IMG/VR virus record: IMGVR_UViG_3300045988_093152
Coordinates: 1-62,487 of that record
Reading direction: 5' to 3' (one strand)
DNA from: a virus
DNA: 62,487 bases
The position numbers and the translations under genes were made by a program. The notes beneath the pieces are model-generated. The model had not been told where the DNA came from, ran no database searches, and worked only from the letters and a program-made list of their open reading frames with translations. Positions 4,745 through 61,401 of the stretch are shown here, piece after piece. Position 1 is the stretch's first letter; every line of letters starts with the position of its first letter.

Positions 4745-5102
4745 TTCTACACCTCCACATCTTTGTGACCTGATGAGCTGTGAGCCAGCCCTCAACATCA
4801 TCATGGCCAAGTAGCTGTGTGCCCATCACCTCGACAAGCCCTTGCTCAAAGCCATAGGAACCCCAACCCCAAACGCCATCCCAGATACGATTTCCAGCAG
4901 CATCATATGCAACGATTTGTTCACCACCATCGTGTCGTCCGCCCGGAAGATACTCCCGATAGTCCGGTATGTCCATCTCTGGCCAACGACGTCCATAAGT
5001 ATGCGGAACCTTAGCGTGCTTCAGCAGAATATCCAGCTTCTGCATCTCGGTCATGTGATTCCAAACCCGGAGTTTCCAAGTTTTCTTAGACATATTTCTC
5101 AT
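4725..5102 (-). CDS. hypothetical protein (start uncertain; ORF is open to 5216)
   Basis: ORF track 4725..5216. ATG at 5102 follows AAAGGA. Confidence 0.45.
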   Translation of the reverse strand: MRNMSKKTWKLRVWNHMTEMQKLDILLKHAKVPHTYGRRWPEMDIPDYREYLPGGRHDGGEQIVAYDAAGNRIWDGVWGWGSYGFEQGLVEVMGTQLLGHDDVEGWLTAHQVTKMWRCRNAAKNR

Positions 5103-5257
5103 TTCTGCATTTCCTTTCGTCAGCCTCCATGGCCTTTGCGATTTTATGCTGGATATAAAGTACACAGCCATCCTGACTATCACATCCAAATGAAGCCAGC
5201 AATCCAGCAATAGCATTCAGACAGTTCAAGTCTTCTTTAGTAAATATCATTTAACCT

Positions 5258-5485
5258 TCACCGTTCCTCCTGATACTCTACGATTTTGGTCACTTCACTC
5301 TGAACCCGGTGTAAGAAACCACACGTACCCGAGTAACCGCATTCCACCAATACCTCGGCGAGATCGCCCAAAATATCCATATCGGTTCTTGTGAGATTAA
5401 CTTGAGGAACAACTTCAATGTCCTCCTCTGCGATAAATGGGGTATAGTCTCCACAATGGCAACATTTAATGTTCATGCGTTGCAT
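5258..5485 (-). CDS. hypothetical CxxC protein
   Basis: ATG at 5485 after GAAGGAG. A terminator lies upstream of it. Confidence 0.55.
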   Translation of the reverse strand: MQRMNIKCCHCGDYTPFIAEEDIEVVPQVNLTRTDMDILGDLAEVLVECGYSGTCGFLHRVQSEVTKIVEYQEER

Positions 5486-5504
5486 ATAAACATCTCCTTC
5501 AACG

Positions 5505-5540
5505 ATAAAAATAAAGAGCCGCAGATTTCTCCACGGCTCT
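5505..5540 (-). terminator. rho-independent terminator, conserved hairpin family
   Basis: Minus strand AGAGCCGTGG-AGAAAT-CTGCGGCTCT followed by a T-run. Confidence 0.7.
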
Positions 5541-5544
5541 CGCC

Positions 5545-5820
5545 TTAAAAATAGTGAACCCCACAATTGAGTCTAGTCATAGAATCATCAAATCTACGGA
5601 TAATGTCATATGCATTTTCGTGCAAAGGGCTTTCTGCCTGATATCTTCGGGCTACTTCCATCAGCTTGGCTCTAGTTACTTCATTGAAGCCACCATTTTT
5701 TTCGGCTTCCATATAAATAGCACATGCCTTGCGTCCGTACCTCATTCCCATAAGTACACCGTGCAAATATCCTTTTGCATAATAATATGCTCCGTAAATT
5801 TTCAGAAACATCTTCATCAT
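5545..5820 (-). CDS. hypothetical protein
   Basis: ATG at 5820 lies 8 nt after the GGAGG of the P-motif. Confidence 0.55.
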   Translation of the reverse strand: MMKMFLKIYGAYYYAKGYLHGVLMGMRYGRKACAIYMEAEKNGGFNEVTRAKLMEVARRYQAESPLHENAYDIIRRFDDSMTRLNCGVHYF

Positions 5821-5828
5821 GTGTTTCA

Positions 5829-5857
5829 CCTCCATAAAGGAGCCTGTTATTTTCGCG
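5829..5857 (-). promoter_or_regulatory. P-motif, copy 1
   Basis: Minus strand CGCGAAAATAACAGGCTCCTTTATGGAGG. Confidence 0.55.
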
Positions 5858-6008
5858 TCTTCTCCTCAAACTTCAGAGGCTTAACCGTACCCTCCCGCGC
5901 ACACTCCGTCATGCACTCATTGCAGGGCTCGTCCGTCTCCAGCACCTTGAAGCTCTTGCACTTCGGGCAGTAGGTCGCATAATCCACTTCGCGCATCCAG
6001 TTATTCAT
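5847..6008 (-). CDS. zinc-ribbon hypothetical protein (53 aa, below the track cutoff)
   Basis: Hand translation MNNWMREVDYATYCPKCKSF...CNEC.... ATGA overlap with the upstream gene. Its 3' end overlaps P-motif 1. Confidence 0.45.
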   Translation of the reverse strand: MNNWMREVDYATYCPKCKSFKVLETDEPCNECMTECAREGTVKPLKFEEKTRK

Positions 6009-6529
6009 ATTTTGATATCCTCCATGTCAAATGTAGTGATGTGCTCGCAGTTAGGACACTTCAGATCAACAGTTCCAGCCGAGACTCGTACATACGCCAC
6101 GTCCACATCCGGGCAAAGGTGCTGTGTCGAACTTGTCAATACATAATTACACGTTGCACACCGAAGCTGCTTTTTCTTAGGTTCTAATTTTTTGCCTTCT
6201 TGATTGCACAACCTATCGTCCAGTTCCGGGTGCGTCATCCGCTGGTTCAGAGCCCACAGCAGGTTCCAACAGGCAGCACGCAGGTGATCCTCATCGTCCA
6301 TACCAACCATGTACTTTGCCAGATGCCGAGAAGCACTGTCCAGAAGAGAATGCAGCGGGATACCCTTATCCACATTGTGCTCGCCGTACTTCAATGCGCC
6401 CTCCTCGCAGTGCTTGCTGACCTCCATAATGCCATACCAGGGCAGAAGATCCATCCGTCCCTTCCCTGCGTGCATGTCACGCTTTGCACCGGTTTCAAAT
6501 TCGGTGCGGTCTCCAGAATCTTTAATCAT
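6005..6529 (-). CDS. putative dNTP pyrophosphohydrolase (all-alpha MazG-like N-domain) with C-terminal zinc ribbon
   Basis: KDSGDRTEFETGAKRD..GKGRMDLLPW...ALKYGEHN...DSASRHL...DEDHLRAACWNL matches my recollection of the phage dATP/dGTP diphosphohydrolase N-terminal family. C-terminal CATC...CPNC. Confidence 0.6.
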   Translation of the reverse strand: MIKDSGDRTEFETGAKRDMHAGKGRMDLLPWYGIMEVSKHCEEGALKYGEHNVDKGIPLHSLLDSASRHLAKYMVGMDDEDHLRAACWNLLWALNQRMTHPELDDRLCNQEGKKLEPKKKQLRCATCNYVLTSSTQHLCPDVDVAYVRVSAGTVDLKCPNCEHITTFDMEDIKI

Positions 6530-6755
6530 TTGTTTTCTCCTCCAGTTCATTGATTCGAGTGGTTAAGACAGTTCTTGCGGATATGAGCGAAATAAAACGC
6601 AGAAATTCCTCGTCAGAAGCCATTTTCACCACTATTCCCGCGCACAAAGGATTTACTTTGCAATATCCAACAAGTTCGGAACGATACAATTCGCGCTGTG
6701 CCTTTAGCTGAGCAATATCTGTGCAGTTGCAGATGTCATGTATGTTTTCCAGCAT
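6522..6755 (-). CDS. hypothetical protein
   Basis: 77-aa ORF, GGAGG SD. Confidence 0.5.
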   Translation of the reverse strand: MLENIHDICNCTDIAQLKAQRELYRSELVGYCKVNPLCAGIVVKMASDEEFLRFISLISARTVLTTRINELEEKTND

Positions 6756-16706: not shown

Positions 16707-17693
16707 TCAGATCTTATCGATGATGGGCCCGTCGCAGTTGAACCGCAGCATCACCGAGCGCTCCCCGCCGTTGATAAAGCTGTTCAGCGCATCGTCGCCC
16801 TTGACGTAGTTGGTCACACCGAAATCCACGTGGTTCTGTCGGGTCGTGTCGTTCGGGTCATAGATCCAGCCCACGATCTGGCCTTCCGGGGTCTTCAGGG
16901 TCACACCACCGTGGGTGCCCAGAGATGCCAGAACGTCATTCAGGAACAGGTGACCCTGGGTGCGCAGACGCTTGTTTGCCGCCTGCTCCATCAGGAACAG
17001 GTAGTTGCGGTTCAGCATATTGTCGGGCTGCCAGGTGTCCACAGTCTCGTCAAAGATGCAGGTATAGGGGCTGGTGTGCTGCATGGCGATGTCCTTGTAT
17101 TCCTTGATGGTCTCCTCCATGCCCTGCTCGTTGGTGCTCTTGCTCTCGAGCTCCACAGCCTTGATGTTGTGCTCCAGCTCCTCCTGAACACGGCTTCCAA
17201 AGCGGTCGGATACACGGCTCTTGTATTCCTCAAAGGCCTTGTCCAGAGCAATATAAGCCGCAGTCAGGCTCGCATTGCGCTTGGACATGATGTGGTGGGA
17301 ACCGAACATGCAGCCCAGAGATACCGCACCCAGGGTAACCGCAGGCGCATACACCTTTGCCAGCTTCAGGCCGGTCTGGACGTAGGTGGTCGTAATATCG
17401 CTCTTGTAATCCTTCTCGGTGTAGGTCTCGCCCTCGCTCAGCTGGATCTCACCGCTCTCGATCTGCTGCTTGGTCGTGTGGATGCTCTCCACCTGAGCAT
17501 TGTGCTCGGTCAGAATATCCTGTGCCTTGATGGTCGCCTTGCAGGCCAGCACGGTAGCAGTCACACCACCAATGGCAGCGCCAACGATCATAATGGTGGG
17601 GCTTGCCTTCTTCAGCTTGTAGCCGCACTTGGATGCAGTACGGGTCATCTTTTCCATGATTTCGGTTTTGTCGATCTTTTTCAGGAACTTCAT
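16707..17693 (-). CDS. two-TM protein, paralog A of a three-member family
   Basis: Shares its architecture with 18825..19610 and 20155..20964: N-terminal TM, KAxxIL, second TM, N..L.AAY, C-terminal GW motif. Confidence 0.7.
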   Translation of the reverse strand: MKFLKKIDKTEIMEKMTRTASKCGYKLKKASPTIMIVGAAIGGVTATVLACKATIKAQDILTEHNAQVESIHTTKQQIESGEIQLSEGETYTEKDYKSDITTTYVQTGLKLAKVYAPAVTLGAVSLGCMFGSHHIMSKRNASLTAAYIALDKAFEEYKSRVSDRFGSRVQEELEHNIKAVELESKSTNEQGMEETIKEYKDIAMQHTSPYTCIFDETVDTWQPDNMLNRNYLFLMEQAANKRLRTQGHLFLNDVLASLGTHGGVTLKTPEGQIVGWIYDPNDTTRQNHVDFGVTNYVKGDDALNSFINGGERSVMLRFNCDGPIIDKI

Positions 17694-17716
17694 AAATATC
17701 AATCCTTTCTTATTGT

Positions 17717-25786: not shown

Positions 25787-27007
25787 GTGCTTATAACCTG
25801 TCCAGAGTGTGAATTGCAAATTTCTGATAAGGCACTTGTATGCCCTCATTGCGGTTTTCCACTCAAGAAGAATGCTCAAGTGTATCCTAGAAAAGCAAAT
25901 AAACGTCGTAGGCTGCCAAATGGATTCGGACAGATTTCAGAAATCAAGGGGCGCAATCTACGAAAGCCGTTCAGAGTTTTAGTAACCGTAGACAAAGGAT
26001 TAGATGGGAAACCAATCTGTAAGCCGCTTCAGCCACAGTCTTATTTTGAAACCTACAATGATGCATATTTAGCATTAGTTGAATACAACAAGAATCCATA
26101 TTCCATCGAGAAAAATATTACCATGGATGAATTGTATCAGGCATGGCTGAAGGAATACAGGACGCATGTTGGAGAGAAGATGATAGAAAAGACTGAGTGT
26201 TGCTGGCGGTATGTTCGCAAAATTCACAATATGAAATTACAGCAAGTTCGTATTCCACAACTCAAGCTCGCACTCGACGAGGCAACAACCTATAAAAGTG
26301 GCAACGAAGTAGAACTTCCTCGTTCAGCTAAAGGCAGAATCAAAAGCCTGTTCAATCTCATGTTTGACTATGCAGTAGAGAACGAGCTTGTTCCGCAAAA
26401 TTATGCAAGGTCTTTTGCTCTTTCCAGATCAGATCAAGAAGAAACAGCTAGAGTGGACAAAAGTCACATCCTATATTCAGACGAAGAGGTTGAACTGATT
26501 TGGGGCGCTCTCCCGGTCTATCCATATCTTGATATTACTTTAATTCAATTTTATTCTGGTTGGCGGCCCAATGAACTTTTGAGCATGAAACTAGAAGATG
26601 TTGATTTAGAGAACAAAACATTTCATGGGGGCTCCAAAACTGTCGCAGGTAAAAATCGTATTGTGCCAATTCATTCCAAAATATTCCATTTTGTCGAACA
26701 GCACTATAATGAAGCTGTTGCCGCAGGGAGCGAATATGTATTTCAATCAGATACCCAACCTGGTAAGGCATATACATACGATCGGTATTATGTTCGACTT
26801 ATAGAAGCACGCGATGCCTTGGGGCTAGATAAAAGTCATCGCCCCCATGATGGTCGTGTTCAGTTCGCAACCATGGCAAAGAAAGCTAAAATGGATCAAT
26901 ATGCACTAAAGAAAATTCTCGGTCACTATATCGACGACGTGACCGAGAAGTATTATATAAAACCTGGGATGGACTGGCTCCGAAACGAAATCGAAAAGAT
27001 CAAATGA
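25787..27007 (+). CDS. int: tyrosine recombinase (integrase) with N-terminal zinc ribbon
   Basis: GTG start after AAAGGAGG. CPEC...CPHCG. Catalytic-region motifs SGWRPNELLSM, HRPHDGRVQF, LGHYIDDVTEKYY. Confidence 0.9.
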   Translation: MLITCPECELQISDKALVCPHCGFPLKKNAQVYPRKANKRRRLPNGFGQISEIKGRNLRKPFRVLVTVDKGLDGKPICKPLQPQSYFETYNDAYLALVEYNKNPYSIEKNITMDELYQAWLKEYRTHVGEKMIEKTECCWRYVRKIHNMKLQQVRIPQLKLALDEATTYKSGNEVELPRSAKGRIKSLFNLMFDYAVENELVPQNYARSFALSRSDQEETARVDKSHILYSDEEVELIWGALPVYPYLDITLIQFYSGWRPNELLSMKLEDVDLENKTFHGGSKTVAGKNRIVPIHSKIFHFVEQHYNEAVAAGSEYVFQSDTQPGKAYTYDRYYVRLIEARDALGLDKSHRPHDGRVQFATMAKKAKMDQYALKKILGHYIDDVTEKYYIKPGMDWLRNEIEKIK

Positions 27008-47630: not shown

Positions 47631-49415
47631 TTAAGTGGCCCACTCAACGGCCATTGCGCTGAACGGGGTGGTCAGAGCGCCGGAGCAGCGGGTCTCGATC
47701 AGGTACTTCTGCGCGTTGAAGTCGATGTCGAAGTCATCGAACATGGAAACAGCGCCGCCCTTGTCAGCACCCACAGTGTAATCGGCCAGGTTGACAACGA
47801 TAGCGACCAGGTCGCCGCCCTTGGCACCCTTGCGGCCCTCCATCTCGGGCACAGTCACGATCTTTGCAACACGCAGCTTGCGGGCCAGAGCAGCCTCGTC
47901 GGCATACAGCGGGTGGCCGATGCCGTCCTCCAGCAGGAGCATCTCGGTCAGAGCGTCCTCGGTGGTGAACAGGGTCGGAGTGCCGGAGCCGCGGTAGTCC
48001 TTGCGGGCACGGATGATCTGCTTGATCAGGGCCTTGTACTTGTCCTCCACGGTGGTCAGGCCGGTGGTCTTGCACTGAACCTTGATGGTAAACAGGTCTG
48101 CATCATTGAAGACGGGGCGGATGCAGTTCTCATCGATCTTGTCCTCAGAGGCTGCCAGACGGCCATCACCCAGCAGGTATGCCAGAGCCAGCTCACGGTT
48201 CAGCTTCAGGCGCATCTCCTGCTTCAGCCATGCCACAACGTCAAAGCTGGTAATGTCGATCACATCGTCGCGATCCAGCTTCTGCTTCTTGTAGACGGTG
48301 GTGGGGCTGGTGGAGCGGCGCAGCAGGCCAAAGACCTCTTCCTTCTTGAAGTTGCCCTTGATGTAACCCTTGGCGCGAGCATCCTCCTCGGTCAGGTCAG
48401 CAAACATGCTCTTGAAGCGGCTGAACGGGATGTGGTGGACAGCGCCCATGACCACGCTCACCCAGTCGTCGGGCTTGTCGATGATGCGGGGCGTGGTGTC
48501 CAGCAGGTGATCCTCAGGGAACAGCCAGTCGATGTTGTCGATGCTGTGGGCCAGCTCGTCACTGTCCATGCCGGCATCCTCAAAGGCAGCCTTCATGGTG
48601 CCGTGGCTCTTGGCGGTCTTGACCACCTGGTTGATGTCCTCAATGCTGTGCTTCAGCACGGTCTGGTTGGTGTCCTTGTCAAATGCATTGTGCTTCACGG
48701 TATCGTCCTCCTCACCGTCATCGTTGTTGCCGCCTTCCTTCTCTTCCAGGGCCAGGCCCACCAGAGCGTGGCAGCACTCTTTCTGCTCGTCGGTCATGCT
48801 GTTGTAGACCTGTTCGAGCGTCTTGCCTTCGTTCTTTTCGTCCGCCATTTTGGCTTCCTCCTGTGTTGCTTTATCGTCGGTCACGGCATCGCCGCTGTCC
48901 GCACTGTGTGTAAGGTCTTCCAGCGGGTTGCCCTCGGGGTCCATGCCGTGGGTCAGGCTCAGGCCGTCCTCGTTATAGATAAAGGCCTCGCCGCCCTCGT
49001 AGTCCTCTTCGGCACTGTGCTTCACCACCTCGTCGATCAGGGCACCCGGGTTGCATCCGGCCAGCACCAGGCTCACTTCCCGGATAAAGCCGTGCTTCAC
49101 GGTGCTGCCCACCTTCTTCAGGCCGTTGGCAAAAATGGAAAAGGCGCTCAGGTCGCCGCTCTCCACGCACTGTCTTGCGGTCTTGCCGGTGTCGGTGTCG
49201 TTGAATTTGGCATAGCAGTACACGCCGCCGGGCCGGTTCTCCAGCAGGCAGTGGCCGATCACATTGTCCACGTTGGCGTGGTCGTGGTTGTACACCATGG
49301 GCACAACCTTGCCGCTGCACTCCTTAAAGGCATCCTGCGCGATCACCAGCCCGTCATAGCACCGGACGTTCGCTTTCGTCGCCCAGCCGCTGCAATCGTA
49401 GTCAAAATTAACCAT
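47631..49415 (-). CDS. prohead protease (HK97 S78-type) fused to major capsid protein
   Basis: N-terminal VPMVYNHDHANVDNVIGH...SAFSIFANG...REVSLVLAGCNPGA is protease-like. The C-terminal ~400 aa are HK97-fold-capsid-like. ATG at 49415. Confidence 0.75.
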   Translation of the reverse strand: MVNFDYDCSGWATKANVRCYDGLVIAQDAFKECSGKVVPMVYNHDHANVDNVIGHCLLENRPGGVYCYAKFNDTDTGKTARQCVESGDLSAFSIFANGLKKVGSTVKHGFIREVSLVLAGCNPGALIDEVVKHSAEEDYEGGEAFIYNEDGLSLTHGMDPEGNPLEDLTHSADSGDAVTDDKATQEEAKMADEKNEGKTLEQVYNSMTDEQKECCHALVGLALEEKEGGNNDDGEEDDTVKHNAFDKDTNQTVLKHSIEDINQVVKTAKSHGTMKAAFEDAGMDSDELAHSIDNIDWLFPEDHLLDTTPRIIDKPDDWVSVVMGAVHHIPFSRFKSMFADLTEEDARAKGYIKGNFKKEEVFGLLRRSTSPTTVYKKQKLDRDDVIDITSFDVVAWLKQEMRLKLNRELALAYLLGDGRLAASEDKIDENCIRPVFNDADLFTIKVQCKTTGLTTVEDKYKALIKQIIRARKDYRGSGTPTLFTTEDALTEMLLLEDGIGHPLYADEAALARKLRVAKIVTVPEMEGRKGAKGGDLVAIVVNLADYTVGADKGGAVSMFDDFDIDFNAQKYLIETRCSGALTTPFSAMAVEWAT

Positions 49416-50670
49416 TTTGATTTGCAATACTCCTCTCTACGGCATCCCGCCCTGCCGTGATTGTTTTGTTCTGCGCCGCAATTTCCTCACTGCTCTGGCT
49501 GATGTTTGCATTCCGCAGTTCATCTGCCTTGGGGTCCTTGCTGGGTTTCATGCCAATGGCCTGCCGGAACTCGTTGGAGGTCATGATCTCATTGCGGGTA
49601 AACTTGTCGGCCATTTCGGCAACGGCGGAAACAGGGGTCAGCTTGAACGGGTCACGGAAGTACATCACGGATTCCCGGTTCGCCCGGTCGTCCTCGGTCA
49701 GGAACTTCCGCCGGATCTCGTCCACGGCAGCCGCCACAATGGGTTCGATGGTACGGTTCTCGTAGTTGGTCATCACAGCATCGGAAGCAGTACCGTTCAT
49801 GATCTCCGGGGTGATACCCAACTGGCTGTATGCCATGTTGGTCAGGTATTCCACGGTCTTCAAAAGGTTGTTTTCGAGGCTGCGGTTCAGCTGCGTGATA
49901 TGCTCCGTGCCATCGGTGTAGGCAATGCCGTATTTGGAACCGGCGAGCTGCTGTTCGATCTGTGCCCGCCGTTCTTCGGCCTGTTTCTTCCGGGTCTCGC
50001 CCTTCACAACGTAGGGCAGCTGGATGATCAGGTCGAGCTTGCCGCTGCCCACCTGCTCGTCGATCACGTCCATCAGGTTCAGTTTCCGGATCAGGCGCTG
50101 CACCGTGCCGTTGGGCTCGTTCATCACGGCATAGAACGGGTTCTCCACCAGGGCCACCTGTGTCTTCGGCAGGGTGATTTCCTCTTTCCGTCCGGTCCGG
50201 TCGTTGTACACTTCCAGCCGCACGTCGTCCGGGTACCATTCCAGCACCTTTCCCACCCGCATGGATTCGATCCGGGTCTTACCGGTCTTTCCGTCGTAGT
50301 CCACGTCAATCGGCACCAGTGCAATGCATCCCTCATCCAGCATGGAAAGGAACATGTCATATCGCAGTGCCCGGCCCGTCTGGTCCTTGTTGCCGGAAAG
50401 ATTCAGGCAAGAATTAAGGCCCGAATCAACGGTTTCGTCGTAGCGTCCGTTTTCATCGAGCCTTACATGATTGATGGTGATCGCCGCAGCATCCATTGCA
50501 ATGCGGGTGTTGATGGCCGTCATAATCGTCCGGTCATTGGTTCGGTTCAGCCGTACCCGGTCGGGCCGGTTGCTGTAACCTCCCCCAATATAAATTTTTC
50601 CGGGAGGGTCCCGGTTCAAAAACGCATTCCAGGCGTGTCTCAGTCTGGAGCCAAAGGTTTGTGATGCCAT
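49408..50670 (-). CDS. portal protein
   Basis: 420-aa ORF between the terminase region and protease-capsid, GGAGGAAATCAAAATG start. Confidence 0.65.
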   Translation of the reverse strand: MASQTFGSRLRHAWNAFLNRDPPGKIYIGGGYSNRPDRVRLNRTNDRTIMTAINTRIAMDAAAITINHVRLDENGRYDETVDSGLNSCLNLSGNKDQTGRALRYDMFLSMLDEGCIALVPIDVDYDGKTGKTRIESMRVGKVLEWYPDDVRLEVYNDRTGRKEEITLPKTQVALVENPFYAVMNEPNGTVQRLIRKLNLMDVIDEQVGSGKLDLIIQLPYVVKGETRKKQAEERRAQIEQQLAGSKYGIAYTDGTEHITQLNRSLENNLLKTVEYLTNMAYSQLGITPEIMNGTASDAVMTNYENRTIEPIVAAAVDEIRRKFLTEDDRANRESVMYFRDPFKLTPVSAVAEMADKFTRNEIMTSNEFRQAIGMKPSKDPKADELRNANISQSSEEIAAQNKTITAGRDAVERSIANQNG

Positions 50671-50686: not shown

Positions 50687-51238
50687 TCAGGACTTCTTTA
50701 CAGCCGAAGCCATTGCGGCCGTTACAACGGCTTTTTTCAAAGCATCGCTCCCAGTCGCATTTACGGCAGCCGCAGCGATATCGCCATAGTGATTCAGCAC
50801 GGCGTCCACTGCCACCTTGCCAGCCACGCCCCCGATTGCACCGGCTGCGCCACCAACGATTTTGTTGCCGGCAGTTTTCAGCAGATCAGTCACATAAGCC
50901 TTACCAGGTGACGTGCTCTTCTTCAGTTCCAGATACTGCTTTTCTTTCTGCATCCGGGCGATTCGCTGATTCAGCTCTTCATCTGTCATCTTTTTGGGAT
51001 TATTAAAGTGAGCCTTTCCTTGAGGTGTCCATCCATCCTTGTCCATCGGGCGAGCCGTACCCTTCAAAAACCGTTTGGCAACATTTCCGGCTTTCTTGAC
51101 ACCGTTTTTGTAGTCATCCGCGGAGTACCGTTTTCTGCCAGCAGATGTCAAAGTACCATCCTGGTTCTGGTACCGCCGCACACCCCACTTCATGCCTTTG
51201 ATACCCCAATGGCACAGTTCATCGTTATAAACGGTCAC
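50687..51238 (-). CDS. leader-motif protein with glycine/alanine-rich hydrophobic C-terminus
   Basis: GTG start after AAAGGAGG. N-terminus CHWGIKGMKWGVRRYQNQDGTLTSAGRKRY. C-terminus GGAAGAIGGVAGKVAVDAV... Confidence 0.65.
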   Translation of the reverse strand: MTVYNDELCHWGIKGMKWGVRRYQNQDGTLTSAGRKRYSADDYKNGVKKAGNVAKRFLKGTARPMDKDGWTPQGKAHFNNPKKMTDEELNQRIARMQKEKQYLELKKSTSPGKAYVTDLLKTAGNKIVGGAAGAIGGVAGKVAVDAVLNHYGDIAAAAVNATGSDALKKAVVTAAMASAVKKS

Positions 51239-51303
51239 ACTTTACCTCCTTTGCAAATAAAAAACGCACCAGCAATTAAGCTGATGCGTTCAGATGTACC
51301 GTA

Positions 51304-51507
51304 TTACGGAATGATGTCTAAAATAGATTCGCACATCGTTCCTATCTCATTCGGAAAATAATTGTCATCCAACCCCCGATATTCCAGTTCATCGCCGACT
51401 CGTTCTTCGATTTTGGCCCACTCATCGGAAAAATCATCGATTTTGGTATAATCGTAATCAAGCCCCAGACTTTTCAAAAAATCGATCTGTTTCTCGGTAA
51501 GCATCAT
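51304..51507 (-). CDS. putative immunity protein for the upstream toxin
   Basis: 67-aa acidic ORF starting 4 nt after the toxin stop, GAGGTG SD. Confidence 0.5.
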   Translation of the reverse strand: MMLTEKQIDFLKSLGLDYDYTKIDDFSDEWAKIEERVGDELEYRGLDDNYFPNEIGTMCESILDIIP

Positions 51508-51510
51508 GGA

Positions 51511-51948
51511 TCACCTCTTAGTGTATTTTCGGATTGCATTATGCCCTGTTTTCCAGACAGTCGTGACACAGCCATTTTCGGGGTTCACGTTTACCGTAGC
51601 GTGCTGACCAATAAATCGTTGACTCGGCTGTCCCTTCTCATTATACCGCACCTTTATTGTATCAGAGTTTAGCGGCTTTTGCAACGCATCCAGCAATCCT
51701 TCCAGAGTCACCTGTCTGGTAGGGTCTTGGGTACGGTCCAGTGCATGAATTGATAGGCCTTTCACAAGGACACCATTTGAAGCATAAAACGGTTTTCTGA
51801 ATTTCCGAGCAGCTCTCGCTTCGATTGAATATCGGTCATGTGCGAGTTGCTCTTTTGTCCGCCGGACTCCCCATTTCATACCTTTAATGCCATAGTGATA
51901 AAGCTCATCTGGATTTCTCCATCTCCAGATGTTGGTATATTCGTGCAT
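51511..51948 (-). CDS. leader-motif protein with C-terminal RNase-toxin-like (DUF4258/BECR-like) domain
   Basis: N-terminus YHYGIKGMKWGVRR. C-terminus SIHALDRTQDPTRQVTLEGLLDAL...QRFIGQHATVNVNPENGCVTTVWKT resembles the H..R...R.I...V.V.....V.TV pattern of that toxin fold. Confidence 0.55.
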   Translation of the reverse strand: MHEYTNIWRWRNPDELYHYGIKGMKWGVRRTKEQLAHDRYSIEARAARKFRKPFYASNGVLVKGLSIHALDRTQDPTRQVTLEGLLDALQKPLNSDTIKVRYNEKGQPSQRFIGQHATVNVNPENGCVTTVWKTGHNAIRKYTKR

Positions 51949-52015
51949 GGTCAACCTTTCTTGATAATCCTTATATTTTATGATAAACTAAAGCTAAAAA
52001 ATGGGAGGCACTCTT

Positions 52016-52654
52016 ATGAAATTTCCACAAATATCACAAGAACAGGCTGCTTCTATTCTGGATGCCTGCTATGAAAAAGCACTTCATGGTGCCCCAGGGG
52101 CAAAAAGTTGTTCGCAGCTGGCAGAAGAATATCTCGAGAAATATCCAAACCCGATTACAGCAATAGATGAATTTGTGAAATGGCAGATTGGCAAATGCAC
52201 TACTTCCGGTTTTCTCACGAGCCTTGGTGGGATCATAACCTTACCCGTTACGCTTCCAGCCAATCTTGTAACTGTCTGGTATGTTCAATTACGGATGATT
52301 GGAACAATTGCAACCATTTCTGGTTGTGATCCATCAGATGATGACGTACAGGCACTCTCGTATATTTGCCTTGCTGGTGGCTCCGTATCTAAAATATGTA
52401 GAGAGGCAGGTGTTCAGTTCACCAATAAACTTACTGCATCTATGCTAAAAAGAATACCCGGAGCCGTCTTTACAAAAATCAACCAAAAAGTTGGTTTTCG
52501 ATTTGTTACAAAGGCCGGTTCAAAAGGGATTGTCAACATGGCAAAGCTCATACCTCTTGCAGGAGGTATCGTCGGCGGCGGAATTGATTATGTTGGCACC
52601 AAAGTAATGGCTGATCGGGCAATCAAGACATTCCTCTGGAAGAATTACGATTGA
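52016..52654 (+). CDS. EcsC-family protein (moron on the opposite strand)
   Basis: GGGAGG SD. SILDACYEKAL...FVKWQIGKCTTSGFLTSLGG...LVTVWYVQLRMIGTIA pattern recalled as EcsC. Confidence 0.55.
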   Translation: MKFPQISQEQAASILDACYEKALHGAPGAKSCSQLAEEYLEKYPNPITAIDEFVKWQIGKCTTSGFLTSLGGIITLPVTLPANLVTVWYVQLRMIGTIATISGCDPSDDDVQALSYICLAGGSVSKICREAGVQFTNKLTASMLKRIPGAVFTKINQKVGFRFVTKAGSKGIVNMAKLIPLAGGIVGGGIDYVGTKVMADRAIKTFLWKNYD

Positions 52655-52655
52655 T

Positions 52656-54401
52656 TCACTCAAACGCATCCCGGTTCTGTTTCCACGCCACGTAAGCGTC
52701 CATCATGGCAGCCACTGCATCGATCTTCTGATCCTGCCGCTGTTTGTAGAGCTTCCGGTTGCCATTGGTGTCCACCAGTGTAATGCAGTTGCCCATGGCA
52801 AATTGCATCAGCTGTTCGTCAAACAGCAGCTTCCGCTGTTCGCTCAGCTTTTTCAGCTCACCCAGCGGCACGCTTTCGGTCTTTGCACCCTGGATCACTT
52901 TCACAACGCCAAAGGTACTGTTTTCATCGCCCCAGCGCTTCACGAACTCCTGTGCGTTGTAGGGATCGTAGCCAAACGCCCGTACGTCGTACTCGTTCTC
53001 CATGATAAAGTTGTCCAGATCATCGTACACCTGCATCATGTCCAGGACCGTGCCGTCAAACACGAACAGGGTCCCTTCCCGCATAAACTCCTCATACTGC
53101 TGCCGTCTCGAAGCCGGAAGCTGGCTGAGGGTGTAGGATGTGATGTAGTCCCGCGTCTTGACCCCAAAATATCCATTGGACAGCGGAAACAGGAAGGTAA
53201 AGGCACAGAAGTCGTCGCCCATGGAAAGGTCCGCGCCCATGGCACAGGGCATCTGCCAGAAGCTTCTCTTCCTGTGGCATAGGGTCTCCTCGTAGGGGAA
53301 GAAATAGGTGTAGCCCTCCATAGGCAGATTGAAGCGCTTGGCCAGAATATCGTTTCGGGCGCTGGGGGATTTCTCCGCACGCTCCACGTCCAACTGGTAG
53401 GTCTCGTAGCTCACGGTCTTGCCCAGGTTCGGGTTGGCCTTCAGCCACATCTCCGGCTGGCCCACTTCCTCAATGGAGTCCAGCTTGTAGTACCAGATGG
53501 ACACATGGGGGTTGACGTACTCCCCTTTCAGGATGCTCATCAACTCCATTTTGATGTCGTCGCCGCAGCCGTTGCGCACCGTGCCCTCGGAGGAAGCCGC
53601 CACGATGAGATAATTCTCGTTCTTGGCTGCGCCCTGTTCAATGGCACCAATGGGGTCTTCCCGGATGTCGCAGGAGAGCCACTCGTCTACGGTCGCCACA
53701 GTGTCGCGCCGTCCTTGCAGCTTCTCAATGGTCATCGGGCGCACTTCCAGCAGGCTGTTGGTCAAAAAGTTCTCGATGCCCTTCTTGGTGGAAGCCATCT
53801 TCACCCGGTCTGCCTTGGAGCCGGTGGTGTTTTGCAGGCTGCCCTCTGTCATAAACTGGAACACCGGCCCCTTTGCCCGCGCCAATGCGGTGCGGAAGGG
53901 TGCCAGCACCTCCTCGGCCTGTTTCATGGTCGGGGCAGTGGTCAGCTGTTGGGTCGTGGTGGTGTACGCCGTCAGGAAGTAGGCCTGCAAAAACTCAAGG
54001 TACATGGTCTTCGCAGCCGATCGGGTAATGATGAGGTACTGCTTTGTCACCAGCCGCTTTTTCAGCCGCCGGGTCTCGTAGTGTCCACCGCCTCCGTGCT
54101 CATTCGGCACAAAGACGCTCCGCTCCACAAAGTAGTACCACCCGAAGATCTCTTCTGCCCATAGCTTAAAACTATCCAGCATCTTCACGTCGGTGCCGTC
54201 CGTCAGGGTCAGCTCGTCCTCGCAGAACGAAATAAAGCCGTTCACCGCTTTGTCGTCATAGTAGATGCCGGGGTTGGCGATCAGGTCGTCGATCCGCTCC
54301 ATCTCCATGGCGATTTCCCGGCAGACCGGTATTTCACCACGCATCACGGCCTCTCTGAAACGGCCGTAATAGATCGGCGTGGCCGTGTTCGAGAGTGCCA
54401 T
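52656..54401 (-). CDS. terL: terminase large subunit
   Basis: 581 aa. ATPase region ITRSAAKT, nuclease region GADLSMGDDFCAF and DAVAAMMDAY. AGGAGAATTGAAAATG start. Confidence 0.85.
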   Translation of the reverse strand: MALSNTATPIYYGRFREAVMRGEIPVCREIAMEMERIDDLIANPGIYYDDKAVNGFISFCEDELTLTDGTDVKMLDSFKLWAEEIFGWYYFVERSVFVPNEHGGGGHYETRRLKKRLVTKQYLIITRSAAKTMYLEFLQAYFLTAYTTTTQQLTTAPTMKQAEEVLAPFRTALARAKGPVFQFMTEGSLQNTTGSKADRVKMASTKKGIENFLTNSLLEVRPMTIEKLQGRRDTVATVDEWLSCDIREDPIGAIEQGAAKNENYLIVAASSEGTVRNGCGDDIKMELMSILKGEYVNPHVSIWYYKLDSIEEVGQPEMWLKANPNLGKTVSYETYQLDVERAEKSPSARNDILAKRFNLPMEGYTYFFPYEETLCHRKRSFWQMPCAMGADLSMGDDFCAFTFLFPLSNGYFGVKTRDYITSYTLSQLPASRRQQYEEFMREGTLFVFDGTVLDMMQVYDDLDNFIMENEYDVRAFGYDPYNAQEFVKRWGDENSTFGVVKVIQGAKTESVPLGELKKLSEQRKLLFDEQLMQFAMGNCITLVDTNGNRKLYKQRQDQKIDAVAAMMDAYVAWKQNRDAFE

Positions 54402-54434
54402 TTTCAATTCTCCTATTATAATAAGGTGGGAACC

Positions 54435-54711: not shown

Positions 54712-55062
54712 TCACGCTTCTTTCTCAAAATTATCGTGCTCCACATTCAGCCGCCATTCCATTTCCGCCACGGTGTTCTTCAGTGCTTCCATGGTAGTGC
54801 TGCTCTGTGGCGGGTCAAAGCCCAGCAGCCGTACCTTCACGGCCACGTAAGCCTTCACCGCTTCCACCTTCACCGGGTCGGCAACGAACTCCGTCCATTC
54901 GTTTTCTTTCCCGGAAATGGCATACCCTTCGCCGGGCCCCACGCCCATCTGCACCAGTGCAAACAGCGCCATGTTGATGTACATGATGATGTCCGCATCA
55001 AAGTCGGTGCACTCCTCGGCAATGCCCAGCAGCTTCTTCACGCTCATCAGGATCGAATTCAT
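54712..55062 (-). CDS. gp6-like head-tail connector protein, tentative
   Basis: VKKLLGIAEECTDFDADIIMYINMALFAL pattern typical of that family. Confidence 0.5.
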   Translation of the reverse strand: MNSILMSVKKLLGIAEECTDFDADIIMYINMALFALVQMGVGPGEGYAISGKENEWTEFVADPVKVEAVKAYVAVKVRLLGFDPPQSSTTMEALKNTVAEMEWRLNVEHDNFEKEA

Positions 55063-55655
55063 TTTGATTCCTCCTCGGCATCGCTGTCGCCACCCATAAT
55101 GTAGCTCATCATGGCGTAGTACCAGTCCTTCTGAGCCCTCGCCAGCAGTTCCAGTTCGGCCAAATGGTGGGACGCACCGTCCTTACCCATGGCCGCTTCT
55201 TTCTGTGCACTCTCCTCGACCAGCTTGGCCAGCCTCCCCGCATCTATCGCCACTTGACCAGGTTTCAGCAAAACGAGATCCCCCTCAGCACTCGGAGCAG
55301 CGTTTTGTGCGGTCACAGCATGATTCTCATCCCTCCGCGGGACAATCTTCATCCCATCAAGCGTAATATCCCCGGCCCGTGTTGCCCGCACCTGCTGCCC
55401 ATCCACATTCGTGGCCAAAGCATCGTCAAAGTCAAAGCCCTTGTTCCGCGGAGCAGCCGTATAGCCCTGCTGGAGCCCGGCTTCTGCAATGCCCACGTTC
55501 GCCCAGAGCAGTGCTTCGTCCAGCTTCGTCAGTGCCAGGCTCCTCGAATGACTCGGTGCAAGGTTCTGAATCATTGTTTCCGCTTCTTCCAGCTTCCGCC
55601 GCAGCCCCATGGCGTAGTCCTGCTCTCGCCGGTTAAATGCTTTTTTCTGGTACAT
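55059..55655 (-). CDS. hypothetical protein
   Basis: ORF track 55059..55670. ATG at 55655 lies 8 nt after GGAGG. Confidence 0.55.
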   Translation of the reverse strand: MYQKKAFNRREQDYAMGLRRKLEEAETMIQNLAPSHSRSLALTKLDEALLWANVGIAEAGLQQGYTAAPRNKGFDFDDALATNVDGQQVRATRAGDITLDGMKIVPRRDENHAVTAQNAAPSAEGDLVLLKPGQVAIDAGRLAKLVEESAQKEAAMGKDGASHHLAELELLARAQKDWYYAMMSYIMGGDSDAEEESK

Positions 55656-55756
55656 ACTCATTTCCTCCACTGGATATCAGACTTTCTTCTTTACATACAA
55701 CATACGGATTGATATACTTATCTCAAACGGTATTTCTTATACTTCGGAGGCAATAT

Positions 55757-58629: not shown

Positions 58630-61401
58630 TTACTTATTGAGTGCACTATAAACAGTAGATTCAGGAATGCCACAAGCCTTTGCGATTTCGGCATAAGAAT
58701 AACCGCTTCGCAGCATTGCACTTGCTTTGGATATCTTTGCAGAAGTCATAACAGTTGCATTCTTTGGCATTGCACGCTTCACAATTTCATCAGAATCAGA
58801 CGAATTAAGGAATTTCGTCAGCATGTTGTCTGAAATTGCACCAGCTTGAACAGCTTCCCATTCCTTATCCGTGAAGGTGACCTTGGATCTGCGTCCGCTT
58901 GCACCAACTGAATCACGAGCACGCTGCATTTCGACAGAAGAGATTTTCTTAATCTCTTTTTTATCTTCTGTAATGTTGGGGTTCAAACCTTGCTCTTGAA
59001 TCTTTGCCTTAATATTAGCATTAGCAATTAGCATCGCCTTGCGTTCTTTGGGTTTATTGGCGATCATATTTGCATACTTAGCTTTCAGCGAAGCTACTTC
59101 AGGGGCATACTTTTTAGCAGCTTCAGCACTGTATTCGAGTCCTTTCATATTAACAGCTTCTTTTCGAGCTTGAGCGGCCATGGCCTTCAGCTTATTAGAG
59201 AAGTCCGCATATAGGTTCTCTTGAACAGTGCCAGAAGACAGAGTTCGAGCATCTTTCGTTTCGGAAATCAGGCTGACAGTATCCTCCGCTAGACGCTTCT
59301 TGCCGCTTTTGGGGTCAGTGAATGTCCGTCCGCTCTCCTTGTAAATATACTCACCGGTCTCCTTGTCTATGCGGACACTGCCACGACGCTCCGGCACTCG
59401 TACTGTCTGCTTACGCCGGGACAGCAGCGTGGATGCACCACCATACTTAGTGTTTCCTTCTTCGTCAACACGAATCTGCCACTTCTGCTTCAGCTCGGGG
59501 ATGCCATTCTCGCGCTCAGAACGCTTATAGTCCAGCTTATGCTTTTCTGCATCGATAACGACCATAGAGTGCTTAACCGCACGTGCAAGCTCGTCCTCAT
59601 CGGCACCTCGCAATGTCATATCAGTGATGAGGTTGGAGATCACGCCCATTTCGCGCTGCTTCTCCTCTTTCTTCATCAGCCTGACATTGTTCGGATTGCC
59701 TTCAGGAACTGCATAAGCAGTCTTAGGATCGAATTCTTCGAGTGCTTTCAATGCACGGGTGGACTTGATGTTGACCTTGTCGGTAACAGGAATCGCCATA
59801 ACCGTGTCGCCATCGAAGTCTGCGCCCGAAAGCCGCTCTGCAACCTTTGCATTGATGCCGATTGCATCCTGAATTGCACCGAGATTCCGCTTGCCGCTGA
59901 CGTTCTTGTTGTTGACGGTCACGATAGGAATCTCGAAGGTGCCTGCATGAGGATAGCGAATCAGTGCAAGTCTGGTGCCATTCTCATAAGTAGGACAATA
60001 AGCCTCTGTCTCCTTGATCTTATTGATCGGCAGGATAACCTTCGTGGACTGGCCCGGGAATGCAGATGCCTTCAGGGTCATGGACGTTCCTTCAACCGTA
60101 TCAGCAAAATCGTTGAGCAGCTTCTTTTTGACCGTAGGACTATCGTACCGCATGATCTCATCATATTGGGCTTTGTAATCCGCAACAGTAAGGTTAAGCT
60201 GGTTCTCGATCAGCTTTTTAGGCTGCTTGGAAAGGAACTGAGAAGAGACGTTCCGAGACATCGTATCCCAGTCGCCTTCCTCCTTCAGCTTATTGATCGG
60301 CGAGAGGTGCTCTTTGCCATCGTCACCGATGTACATGCTCTGGCCGTTAGCCTTGATAGCTGCGCCAAACGGGTTGTCAGGATCAGCTTTTGCTTCCTTA
60401 AGGACCTTCATCTTGGGCGTGCCGGAAGGCTTGTTGGTGTTAAACATAACGTCCACACCATCCGGCAGGTCATCAGAATAGACTGCCATACCTTTCAGAT
60501 AATGGTCTCCGTCAACGAGGATACGAACCTGCGCATAATGGCTCTTGCCCAGATCGAGGTCAGGAACACCACGGCGAATCTCCATAACGCCGTCTTTATC
60601 CAGGCCGCCTTCGTCGCCATAGCGAATCGCAACACGATTGGAATCCAGACTTGCAGGACGCTGAAGCTTCGTAAAGGTCTCGCCGCCGTCATCAGAATGG
60701 TAATCGCCCAGAGAATCGATCTGATCCTGATGCTGGTAAGCATACTTCTGGTCAAACTCAGGCTTCGCAAGAACTGTAATGTTCGTTTGCTGGCGAGGAT
60801 TGGTAGGCTGCTTGATGCCCACACCGTAGCGCTTATAGCCATATTCGGCCTCTAACTTGTATGCGGCCTCATCCAACTCCGTTTGAGTTATTCCTAAAAC
60901 AGAATTTGCTCCTTCAGAAATGTCAATTATACCTTTTTTATCGACTTCAGCCTTCAATGTATTTGCGATATTTACAGCACGTTGTTCTTTTTTACTAATG
61001 TTGCCATTATATTTAGAGCGAACACTAGATTCGCTCATCCCTAGTTTATCACCAATTTCTTTCCATCCAAGACCATCTTCTTTTAGAGCACGAATCTTGT
61101 CGTACTCCAATGCTTGGCGTTCATGTGTAGCCGTCCGCTGAGCTACTCTAAACTCTGTAAGCCCCATTTTATATTCATCGGGAAGAGAATTATTGATAGT
61201 TTCCAGAATATCTTTTTCAGAGAGGCCTTTCTTTTTTAATTCTTTCACCCGGGACAAAAAATCACCAGAATGCTGATACGGATTATCACCAGAGCCCCAG
61301 GGATAACGCCCGGAATGGCGTTTCGTACCGTAATGCTCCAGAATATTACTTTCAGAGGTAATGCCAAAATAAGAACGAAGGTCTTTTTCAATCGGGTTCA
61401 T
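58630..61401 (-). CDS. YonO / QDE-1-like two-barrel (double-psi beta-barrel) RNA polymerase homolog with terminal HTH-like regions
   Basis: HYLKGMAVY...VMFNTNK. LALIRYPHAGTFEI, then about 39 aa, then LSGADFDGDTVMAIPV (compare beta-prime NADFDGDQMAVH). HSMVVIDAEKHKLDY. C-terminal GYSYAEIAKACGIPESTVYSAL. Confidence 0.65.
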   Translation of the reverse strand: MNPIEKDLRSYFGITSESNILEHYGTKRHSGRYPWGSGDNPYQHSGDFLSRVKELKKKGLSEKDILETINNSLPDEYKMGLTEFRVAQRTATHERQALEYDKIRALKEDGLGWKEIGDKLGMSESSVRSKYNGNISKKEQRAVNIANTLKAEVDKKGIIDISEGANSVLGITQTELDEAAYKLEAEYGYKRYGVGIKQPTNPRQQTNITVLAKPEFDQKYAYQHQDQIDSLGDYHSDDGGETFTKLQRPASLDSNRVAIRYGDEGGLDKDGVMEIRRGVPDLDLGKSHYAQVRILVDGDHYLKGMAVYSDDLPDGVDVMFNTNKPSGTPKMKVLKEAKADPDNPFGAAIKANGQSMYIGDDGKEHLSPINKLKEEGDWDTMSRNVSSQFLSKQPKKLIENQLNLTVADYKAQYDEIMRYDSPTVKKKLLNDFADTVEGTSMTLKASAFPGQSTKVILPINKIKETEAYCPTYENGTRLALIRYPHAGTFEIPIVTVNNKNVSGKRNLGAIQDAIGINAKVAERLSGADFDGDTVMAIPVTDKVNIKSTRALKALEEFDPKTAYAVPEGNPNNVRLMKKEEKQREMGVISNLITDMTLRGADEDELARAVKHSMVVIDAEKHKLDYKRSERENGIPELKQKWQIRVDEEGNTKYGGASTLLSRRKQTVRVPERRGSVRIDKETGEYIYKESGRTFTDPKSGKKRLAEDTVSLISETKDARTLSSGTVQENLYADFSNKLKAMAAQARKEAVNMKGLEYSAEAAKKYAPEVASLKAKYANMIANKPKERKAMLIANANIKAKIQEQGLNPNITEDKKEIKKISSVEMQRARDSVGASGRRSKVTFTDKEWEAVQAGAISDNMLTKFLNSSDSDEIVKRAMPKNATVMTSAKISKASAMLRSGYSYAEIAKACGIPESTVYSALNK

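Follow-up and report, generated by a model that had tools for sequence, protein, structure and literature searches.

The genes for a 145-aa protein and a 67-aa acidic protein that lie between the terminase and portal genes of this phage are best explained as a polymorphic-toxin-type accessory cassette in the head/packaging region of a temperate phage. The explanation combines an RNase toxin, a coupled immunity protein, and leader-mediated delivery in the virion, and we put the probability of the whole at about 0.7. That the pair consists of a toxin and its immunity protein is well supported and, in our judgment, highly probable.

In the mechanism proposed here, the C-terminal domain of the larger protein, a divergent DUF4258 domain, most likely cleaves RNA (tRNA, rRNA or mRNA), with H68 and R78 in its active site. 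The acidic three-helix immunity protein most likely binds the basic toxin domain and blocks it, and its translation would be coupled to that of the toxin. A promoter of its own, inside the toxin ORF, is probable, and would let a lysogen make the immunity protein without the toxin. The N-terminal DUF7211 leader most likely carries the toxin into the virion, from which the toxin would enter the next cell together with the DNA, and the immunity protein would protect the producer and lysogens.

The locus and its expression signals

The window, by which we mean the whole stretch of 62,487 nucleotides that was analyzed, is on the evidence of its sequence from a temperate siphophage resembling Faecalibacterium phage FP_oengus, since it encodes a tyrosine integrase (25787-27007) and its TerL and portal genes share 82% nucleotide identity with those of FP_oengus. 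An earlier note, made from the letters of this DNA, had described two ORFs between terminase and portal, the smaller one very acidic and starting 4 nt downstream of the larger, and had attributed to the larger protein a shared leader. All of this is borne out. Both ORFs are present on the minus strand with TerL and portal on either side, the peptide strings quoted for them are found in the sequence, and the ATG of the small ORF is the fourth nucleotide past the toxin stop. Table 1 lists the genes in minus-strand order, from Phage_connect_2 to a protease-major-capsid fusion. The gap between TerL and portal holds, besides the pair, an EcsC-like gene on the opposite strand and a second DUF7211 gene.

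Table 1. Features of the region around the gene pair, in minus-strand order
Feature	Coordinates	Strand	Basis or remark
Phage_connect_2	54712-55062	-	first in the order, before TerL
103-aa ORF		-	between Phage_connect_2 and TerL
TerL (large terminase)	52656..54407	-	Pfam TerL_nuclease 7e-36; PHROG 9
EcsC-like gene	52001-52654	opposite to pair	between TerL and toxin; defense candidate PDC-S29
Toxin gene	51511..51948	-	145 aa; DUF7211 leader, helical linker, DUF4258-like C-terminal domain
DUF7211 leader motif, residues 14-32, ...ELYHYGIKGMKWGVRR...	51853..51909	-	Pfam PF23847, 46.1 bits (cutoff 27)
Putative RNase toxin domain, residues ~53-145, divergent DUF4258/BECR	51514..51792	-	profile search, Pfam of relatives, hhalign, AF2
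Candidate internal sigma-70-type promoter, in toxin ORF	51656..51684	-	consensus scan; TTGCAA-17-TGaTACAAT
Shine-Dalgarno AGGTGATC of immunity gene	51509..51516	-	read from sequence; overlaps toxin TGA stop
Immunity gene	51304..51507	-	67 aa (66 aa from second ATG, 51504); homologs, adjacency, dN/dS, AF2
Intrinsic terminator	51262..51291	-	12-bp stem and T-run, 13 nt past immunity stop
Second DUF7211 gene	50687..51238	-	183 aa; Pfam DUF7211, 49.1 bits
Portal protein	49408..50670	-	Pfam Phage_portal; PHROG 12
Protease-major-capsid fusion	47631-49427	-	after portal

The toxin ORF opens with an ATG at 51948 and ends with a TGA at 51511-51513. A TTG at 51954 would give a protein of 147 aa, but the ATG is preferred because of its spacing from a GAAAGG Shine-Dalgarno sequence. 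The toxin and immunity ORFs share a frame and are separated only by TGA-TCC, that is, the stop and one codon. In most homologs of the small ORF the second methionine is the start, which corresponds to 66 aa here. The last codons of the toxin, together with its stop, spell an extended Shine-Dalgarno sequence 1 nt ahead of the immunity ATG, and diverged homologs likewise keep a Shine-Dalgarno sequence that overlaps the 3' end of the toxin gene; translational coupling of the two genes is therefore implied.

The candidate promoter found by consensus scan lies about 150 nt before the immunity gene begins. A TTGnnA-17-TGnTAnnAT pattern occurs at the same alignment position in 12 of 13 unique homologous regions, and one of them (L006) has a perfect TTGACA-17-TGaTAAAAT there. 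Shuffles of synonymous codons reach the observed score with p of 0.01-0.11 for each sequence, and by consensus scan matches to the promoter pattern are not by themselves above chance for the region (5 found, 3.7 expected). Taken together, the sequences suggest a conserved internal promoter able to express the immunity gene without the toxin. The terminator that follows the immunity gene closes the unit.

The pair is a mobile accessory unit, since it is missing from FP_oengus and lies elsewhere in other genomes. The equivalent region of FP_oengus contains TerL, the opposite-strand gene gp68, the DUF7211 gene gp69, and portal. In five related loci (L001-L005) the pair, at 62-67% identity, lies near integrase and DUF6353 genes and away from any TerL. 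PADLOC gave no convincing match among the cargo genes that related loci carry on the opposite strand.

The putative toxin domain and its partner

The earlier note had assigned the C-terminal domain to the DUF4258/BECR-fold toxins. Profile-level homology supports this assignment, while the window protein itself falls below Pfam detection: it gives no match to DUF4258 (PF14076, gathering score 25 bits) even at E<=1. Outside the leader, the toxin has no direct sequence match in Pfam, NCBIfam, PADLOC or the PDB; neither the protein nor its profile had a useful match among PDB sequences, where the single hit has an E of 1.5. NCBIfam and PADLOC likewise returned no match for the toxin, the immunity protein or the 183-aa protein. 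The close homologs of the toxin form 30 clusters, of which 27 carry DUF7211, the remaining three being short partial proteins.

More distant relatives were sought with a profile of the C-terminal ~100 residues of the toxin family, searched against 1.84 billion representative proteins. It recovered 857 proteins at E<=1e-3 and 346 at E<=1e-10. Among the best 150 of the 857, proteins of 57-512 aa, the domain is C-terminal in nearly all. When 133 of the relatives were scanned with Pfam, 77 matched PF14076 at E<=0.01, and the N-terminal partners included Phage_Mu_F (37 proteins), Phage_min_cap2 (27), DUF7211 (15), VG15 (5) and RHS (1). The RHS protein (P0165) is an RHS-DUF4258 fusion that scores above the Pfam cutoff on PF14076 (37.4 bits against 25). 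The window-family profile matches it at E 1.2e-14, and its alignment to the window family shows 44% identity (hhalign 99.1%, E 6e-19). These matches of the relatives to PF14076, together with the alignment to the RHS fusion, identify the C-terminal domain of the toxin as a divergent DUF4258.

Conserved residues agree with this identification, and fold matches point weakly the same way. The domain opens with H68-A69-L70-D71-R72...R78, which fits the His-Ala...Arg motif of DUF4258. The motif had been given earlier as H..R...R; the histidine and arginines are indeed there, but the spacing was quoted loosely, the actual arrangement being H68-x3-R72-x5-R78. Each of five residues (H68, R78, S109, T118 and N122) recurs in 90% or more of the 133 relatives. 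The toxin has a pI of 10.1, and the dN/dS of its domain is 0.18-0.20. AF2 models the domain (about residues 51-145) with pLDDT 80-94 in the order beta-alpha-alpha-beta-beta-beta-beta-alpha, which we take to be the RelE order. The best Foldseek matches in the PDB are 5i4q (CdiA-CT NC101), 3ao9 (colicin E5) and 1wmi (RelE), all weak (E 0.04-0.3, TM about 0.3); in a viral library Foldseek matched phage proteins, one of them named as a DUF4258 protein.

DUF4258 has been placed in the RelE/ParE (BECR) superfamily, with its activity tabulated as unknown (PMC11980606); no activity or target is known to have been demonstrated for any member. It may be the same as Ntox49, a predicted BECR toxin with conserved H and K/R that is found on MuF and RHS carriers (Zhang 2012, PMC3482391). 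From membership in the family, RNase activity of the window domain is somewhat favored.

The small protein has 18 Asp or Glu among its 67 residues, a pI of 4.05 and a charge of -12.5. AF2 gives it a three-helix fold (pLDDT 95, pTM 0.81) that has no match in the PDB, the best hit having an E of 2, and its sequence matches no DNA-binding (HTH) domain and nothing in Pfam. Its homologs form 24 clusters, and their dN/dS of 0.12-0.18 indicates purifying selection.

The pairing is constant. A homolog of the immunity protein follows the toxin in all 33 loci, the window included, at distances of -51 to +106 nt, and none of the 33 has a solitary immunity homolog. In two loci (L024 and L027) the toxin is disrupted and the immunity gene intact. 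The divergence of the two proteins is correlated (r = 0.88, uncorrected for phylogeny). The key observation is that the partner also travels with the domain onto other carriers. The ORFs that follow two MuF-toxin fusions encode homologs of the immunity protein, of 59 aa in L094 (hhalign 98.3%, E 1.5e-14) and of 66 aa in L101 (hhalign 98.7%, E 4.7e-16), and the C-terminal half of the ORF product after the RHS-toxin fusion matches it as well (hhalign 92.7%, E 4e-7). The arrangement of a cognate immunity gene, suggested earlier from adjacency, is thus sustained by pairing in every locus, by homologs behind the MuF and RHS copies, and by broken toxins beside intact partners. Movement of a cassette among unrelated N-terminal carriers is the defining behavior of polymorphic toxin systems (Zhang 2012, PMC3482391; Jamet 2017, PMC5576092).

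The DUF7211 leader and its possible role in packaging

The leader (HYGIKGMKWGVRR / HWGIKGMKWGVRR) has two copies in the window, one in the toxin and one in the 183-aa neighbor, and both score well above the Pfam cutoff for DUF7211, whose consensus is ELYHYG[IV]KGMKWGVRR. The resemblance is at the protein level only, as no nucleotide-level repeat was found between the two window leaders. Residues 1-30 of the toxin are modeled with pLDDT below 50 and are predicted to be disordered. The leader is basic and aromatic and has no hydrophobic core, and it was rejected as a secretion signal. A literature search found no description of DUF7211 or of the GMKWG motif.

The 183-aa protein consists of the leader, a 'MTDEEL..RMQKEKQY' motif and a Gly/Ala-rich hydrophobic tail. 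Its gene is a conserved core paralog directly upstream of portal, equivalent to gp69 of FP_oengus, and it belongs to the largest cluster of C-terminal regions (57 of 147). A scan of IMG/VR with a leader profile gave, in the best 80 loci, 151 unique DUF7211 ORFs, commonly in tandem groups of 2-4; these loci are the best matches to the query and are therefore biased toward its relatives. In the same loci, 139 of 162 DUF7211 ORFs flank a TerL homologous to that of the window: 55 lie just upstream of TerL, 65 between TerL and portal, and 19 downstream of TerL with the portal gene outside the locus. The C-terminal regions behind the leader fall into about 50 BLAST clusters. Pfam identified Gln_amidase/Tox-PL1 in two of 49 cluster representatives and Ntox50 (E 1e-19), GNAT, DUF6883 and 2H phosphoesterase in one each. 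Tox-PL1 and Ntox50 are known as MuF-associated toxin domains (Zhang 2012, PMC3482391). A search of a 5.8-billion-protein set with the leader profile was uninformative on C-terminal diversity, the best 120 matches all being proteins of 37-81 aa.

The leader motif is also found in 76 isolated phages, mostly phages of Streptomyces, Gordonia, Rhodococcus and Arthrobacter, a lineage whose head module also occurs in Lactococcus phage 1706 and FP_oengus (bioRxiv 10.1101/842583). ORF7 of phage 1706, directly upstream of TerL, contains two DUF7211 matches, and ReqiPoco6 gp020 has one at residues 2-25; the database records annotate both as structural proteins.

Virion packaging is the best available explanation of the leader, one to which we give even odds at most; the earlier note had proposed a packaged toxin, and this is the least secure part of its reading. 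The same cassette is carried by MuF and minor capsid protein 2, which are capsid-internal and portal-associated, and by analogy the leader is most likely a virion-loading element. The case is built on these MuF and minor capsid protein 2 slots, on the toxin repertoires common to the two kinds of carrier (Ntox50, Tox-PL1/Gln_amidase and DUF4258 occur on both DUF7211 and MuF proteins), on the synteny of the head module, and on the structural annotations in the records. A phmmer search with 45 MuF or Min_cap2 N-terminal regions found no MuF homolog in the window.

A point against packaging is that an RNase injected into a new host would endanger phage gene expression there as well.

A broader reading, which we advance tentatively, is that DUF7211, a leader of ~25 residues for virion targeting or ejection, takes the place of MuF in carrying an undescribed family of polymorphic effectors. 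A large siphophage lineage spanning Firmicutes and Actinobacteria, and including Lactococcus phage 1706, the Oengus-like phages and the Streptomyces/Gordonia/Arthrobacter phage supercluster, would load interchangeable enzymes into its capsids. The cargo would comprise DUF4258 and Ntox50 RNases, a Tox-PL1 deamidase, GNAT and 2H phosphoesterase proteins, encoded in hyperplastic arrays that flank TerL, and the window pair would be a toxin/immunity member of the family.

Alternative explanations and known systems

A more conventional explanation would make the pair an ordinary type II toxin-antitoxin (TA) module or an abortive-infection moron that stabilizes the prophage or excludes other phages, with the toxin acting unpackaged in the producing cell and the leader serving as a sensor or regulatory tail. 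DUF4258 is indeed classed among type II TA toxins (PMC11980606), the unit is equipped with a terminator and possibly a promoter of its own, the pair in L001-L005 lies outside the head module, and the presence of PDC-S29 in the same TerL-portal gap marks that gap as a moron hotspot. However, DUF4258 TA modules run from antitoxin to toxin (PMC11980606), whereas here the toxin comes first, and its partner has no DNA-binding domain match. In the great majority of its relatives the domain is fused C-terminally to MuF, minor capsid protein 2 or RHS, and many non-TA enzymes, as well as the product of a conserved head-module gene, bear the leader too. On balance a TA module or moron of this kind is unlikely. 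Less probable still is that the domain is a non-toxic module of a head-assembly protein, binding nucleic acid or protein, and that the 67-aa protein is a chaperone or partner in its assembly. The core of the TerL-portal module includes DUF7211 genes, two proteins of that family have structural annotations, and the listing of DUF4258 activity as unknown (PMC11980606) would accommodate such a role. But the pair is dispensable, as its absence from FP_oengus indicates, and moves between genomic contexts, and the domain and its partner occur also on RHS, a classical toxin carrier. Broken toxin genes beside intact partners are the asymmetry expected of a toxin and its immunity protein, and five polar positions are conserved in 90% or more of 133 diverse relatives.

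The chance that the ORFs are fortuitous frames or mis-called genes is negligible. Nothing more than their small size would suggest it, and the conservation data reject it: each ORF recurs in dozens of contigs and has a dN/dS well under 1, which is more than chance would give. Both also have confident fold predictions and a ribosome-binding site. The preferred reading of the pair as a toxin/immunity cassette has close precedents. Polymorphic toxins encoded in phage head modules, with immunity genes downstream, are already known (PMC3482391, PMC5576092, PMC11699363), as is the toxin domain family. Like the MuF toxins, the window pair lies in the head/packaging module of a temperate phage, has a C-terminal toxin domain, and has a small immunity ORF within a few nucleotides; the same toxin-plus-immunity cassette occurs on MuF carriers, and the DUF7211 family shares Ntox50 and Tox-PL1 with them. 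The differences lie in the carrier. Pfam finds DUF7211 in the window toxin and no N-terminal MuF domain, and a disordered motif of ~25 residues takes the place of a folded domain of ~110 residues or longer. The window gene lies between TerL and portal, whereas the MuF type follows portal, and several leader-bearing paralogs are present per phage instead of the usual single muf gene (Jamet et al., PMC5576092). DUF4258 is not listed in the supplements of that study (Jamet 2017). What is new, then, is a carrier that is short, multi-copy and uncharacterized in place of MuF, and the proteins that bear it look like a separate family of polymorphic effectors.

Comparison with DUF4258 proteins leads to a similar mixture. 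The window domain resembles PF14076 in the HA..R motif at its start, in its alpha/beta topology and in profile-level homology; it differs in a sequence below Pfam detection, in a 2-residue insertion within the H...R motif, and in being fused to a leader instead of standing alone, with a partner that is downstream, acidic and without an HTH. In DUF4258 type II TA systems a DNA-binding antitoxin is encoded upstream of a stand-alone toxin (PMC11980606), while the window toxin comes first and carries the leader.

Phage-borne polymorphic toxins are known only on MuF, and only two of them, Apk2 and Bxa, have been characterized (PMC11699363). The present locus puts the same toxin/immunity cassette on a much smaller carrier that is multi-copy and widespread in phages of gut Firmicutes and soil Actinobacteria. 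If the leader directs proteins into capsids, phage effectors would have a second way of being delivered, the variable gene arrays near terminase in this lineage would be accounted for, and the leader would serve as a minimal peptide tag with which cargo could be loaded into phage particles. The two genes are, besides, a tractable system for finding the target of a DUF4258 toxin.

The capsid-targeting sequence of phage T4 is a short N-terminal peptide present on the internal proteins and on Alt, which are unrelated proteins, some of them enzymes, and vary in number. DUF7211 is likewise a short N-terminal peptide common to unrelated proteins, among them enzymes, whose number varies. The likeness is one of analogy only, for DUF7211 has no sequence similarity to the T4 element, and cleavage by the prohead protease and packaging belong to the T4 side of the comparison. 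Some DUF7211 paralogs contain TM-like segments, which could fit ejection proteins or, against packaging, a role at the membrane.

The junction of the predicted toxin and immunity genes

On the minus strand, the toxin stop codon (TGA, 51511-51513) and a single Ser codon (51508-51510) are all that separate the 145-aa predicted RNase toxin from its putative 67-aa immunity protein, and the two share a frame. Readthrough of the stop codon would yield a toxin–immunity fusion. Because the gap differs in other loci, the in-frame junction may be incidental. Two relatives retain an intact immunity gene beside a damaged toxin gene, and a group of five carries the whole unit elsewhere (see the table). In this group a tyrosine integrase lies a few kb away and three DUF6353 genes adjoin the unit; a DUF6353 gene is also present in the window (16707-17702).

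DUF7211 proteins in head modules and in fusions

DUF7211, the short leader motif of the toxin, recurs in the 183-aa neighbor of the portal gene, which has an 'MTDEEL..RMQKEKQY' motif and a hydrophobic tail rich in Gly and Ala. In related phages (loci L006-L093), one to four DUF7211 genes lie between TerL and portal, and one to three just upstream of TerL, in the slot expected for the small terminase.

The motif also occurs in isolated phages and in composite proteins. ReqiPoco6 gp015 joins a 2H phosphoesterase/LigT domain to DUF7211, and the Gordonia phage genes that resemble it are annotated as 'RNA ligase'. The metagenomic protein P0055 (206 aa) combines a fragment of the Phage_connect_2 head–tail connector, DUF7211, and the toxin domain in one open reading frame, which may be a real fusion or else an artefact of gene calling or assembly.

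Neighboring genes and cargo

The EcsC-family protein encoded between toxin and TerL matches the PADLOC phage-defence candidate PDC-S29 (E 1.4e-73). Related phages carry differing opposite-strand cargo at the same spot, such as the 350-aa gp68 of FP_oengus. This position appears to be a hotspot for moron or defence genes.

In the protease–capsid fusion, an acidic linker connects an N-terminus resembling a prohead protease to a major capsid domain of the HK97 type; the 1706/Oengus/actinophage head module typically has such a fusion. The Acb2/Tad1 hairpin domain, a domain of anti-CBASS and anti-Thoeris sponges, is matched by the 203-aa protein with a borderline score of 27.4 bits (cutoff 27, E 4e-6), and this protein has no match in PADLOC.

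Features of the window and of related loci
Feature	Location	Strand	Remarks
Second DUF7211 protein, 183 aa	window 50687-51238	-	conserved core paralogue adjoining portal
EcsC-family protein, 217 aa	window 52001-52654	+	between toxin and TerL, on opposite strand
Protease–major capsid fusion, 598 aa	window 47631-49427	-	PHROG 3270, E 1.7e-212
203-aa protein	window 55059-55670	-	borderline Pfam match, Acb2/Tad1 hairpin domain
923-aa protein	window 58630-61401	-	sigma-70 region-4/HTH matches close to both ends
Lactococcus phage 1706 orf7	L099 2501-3889		two internal DUF7211 motifs; annotated as structural protein
ReqiPoco6 gp015	L098 230-1846		
ReqiPoco6 gp020	L098 4983-5966		
Toxin gene frameshifted or truncated, immunity gene intact	L024 3980-4620		IMG/VR relative
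Toxin gene frameshifted or truncated, immunity gene intact	L027 1533-2222		IMG/VR relative
Leader–toxin–immunity unit outside head module	L001-L005, ~5100-6632		62-67% identity to window unit
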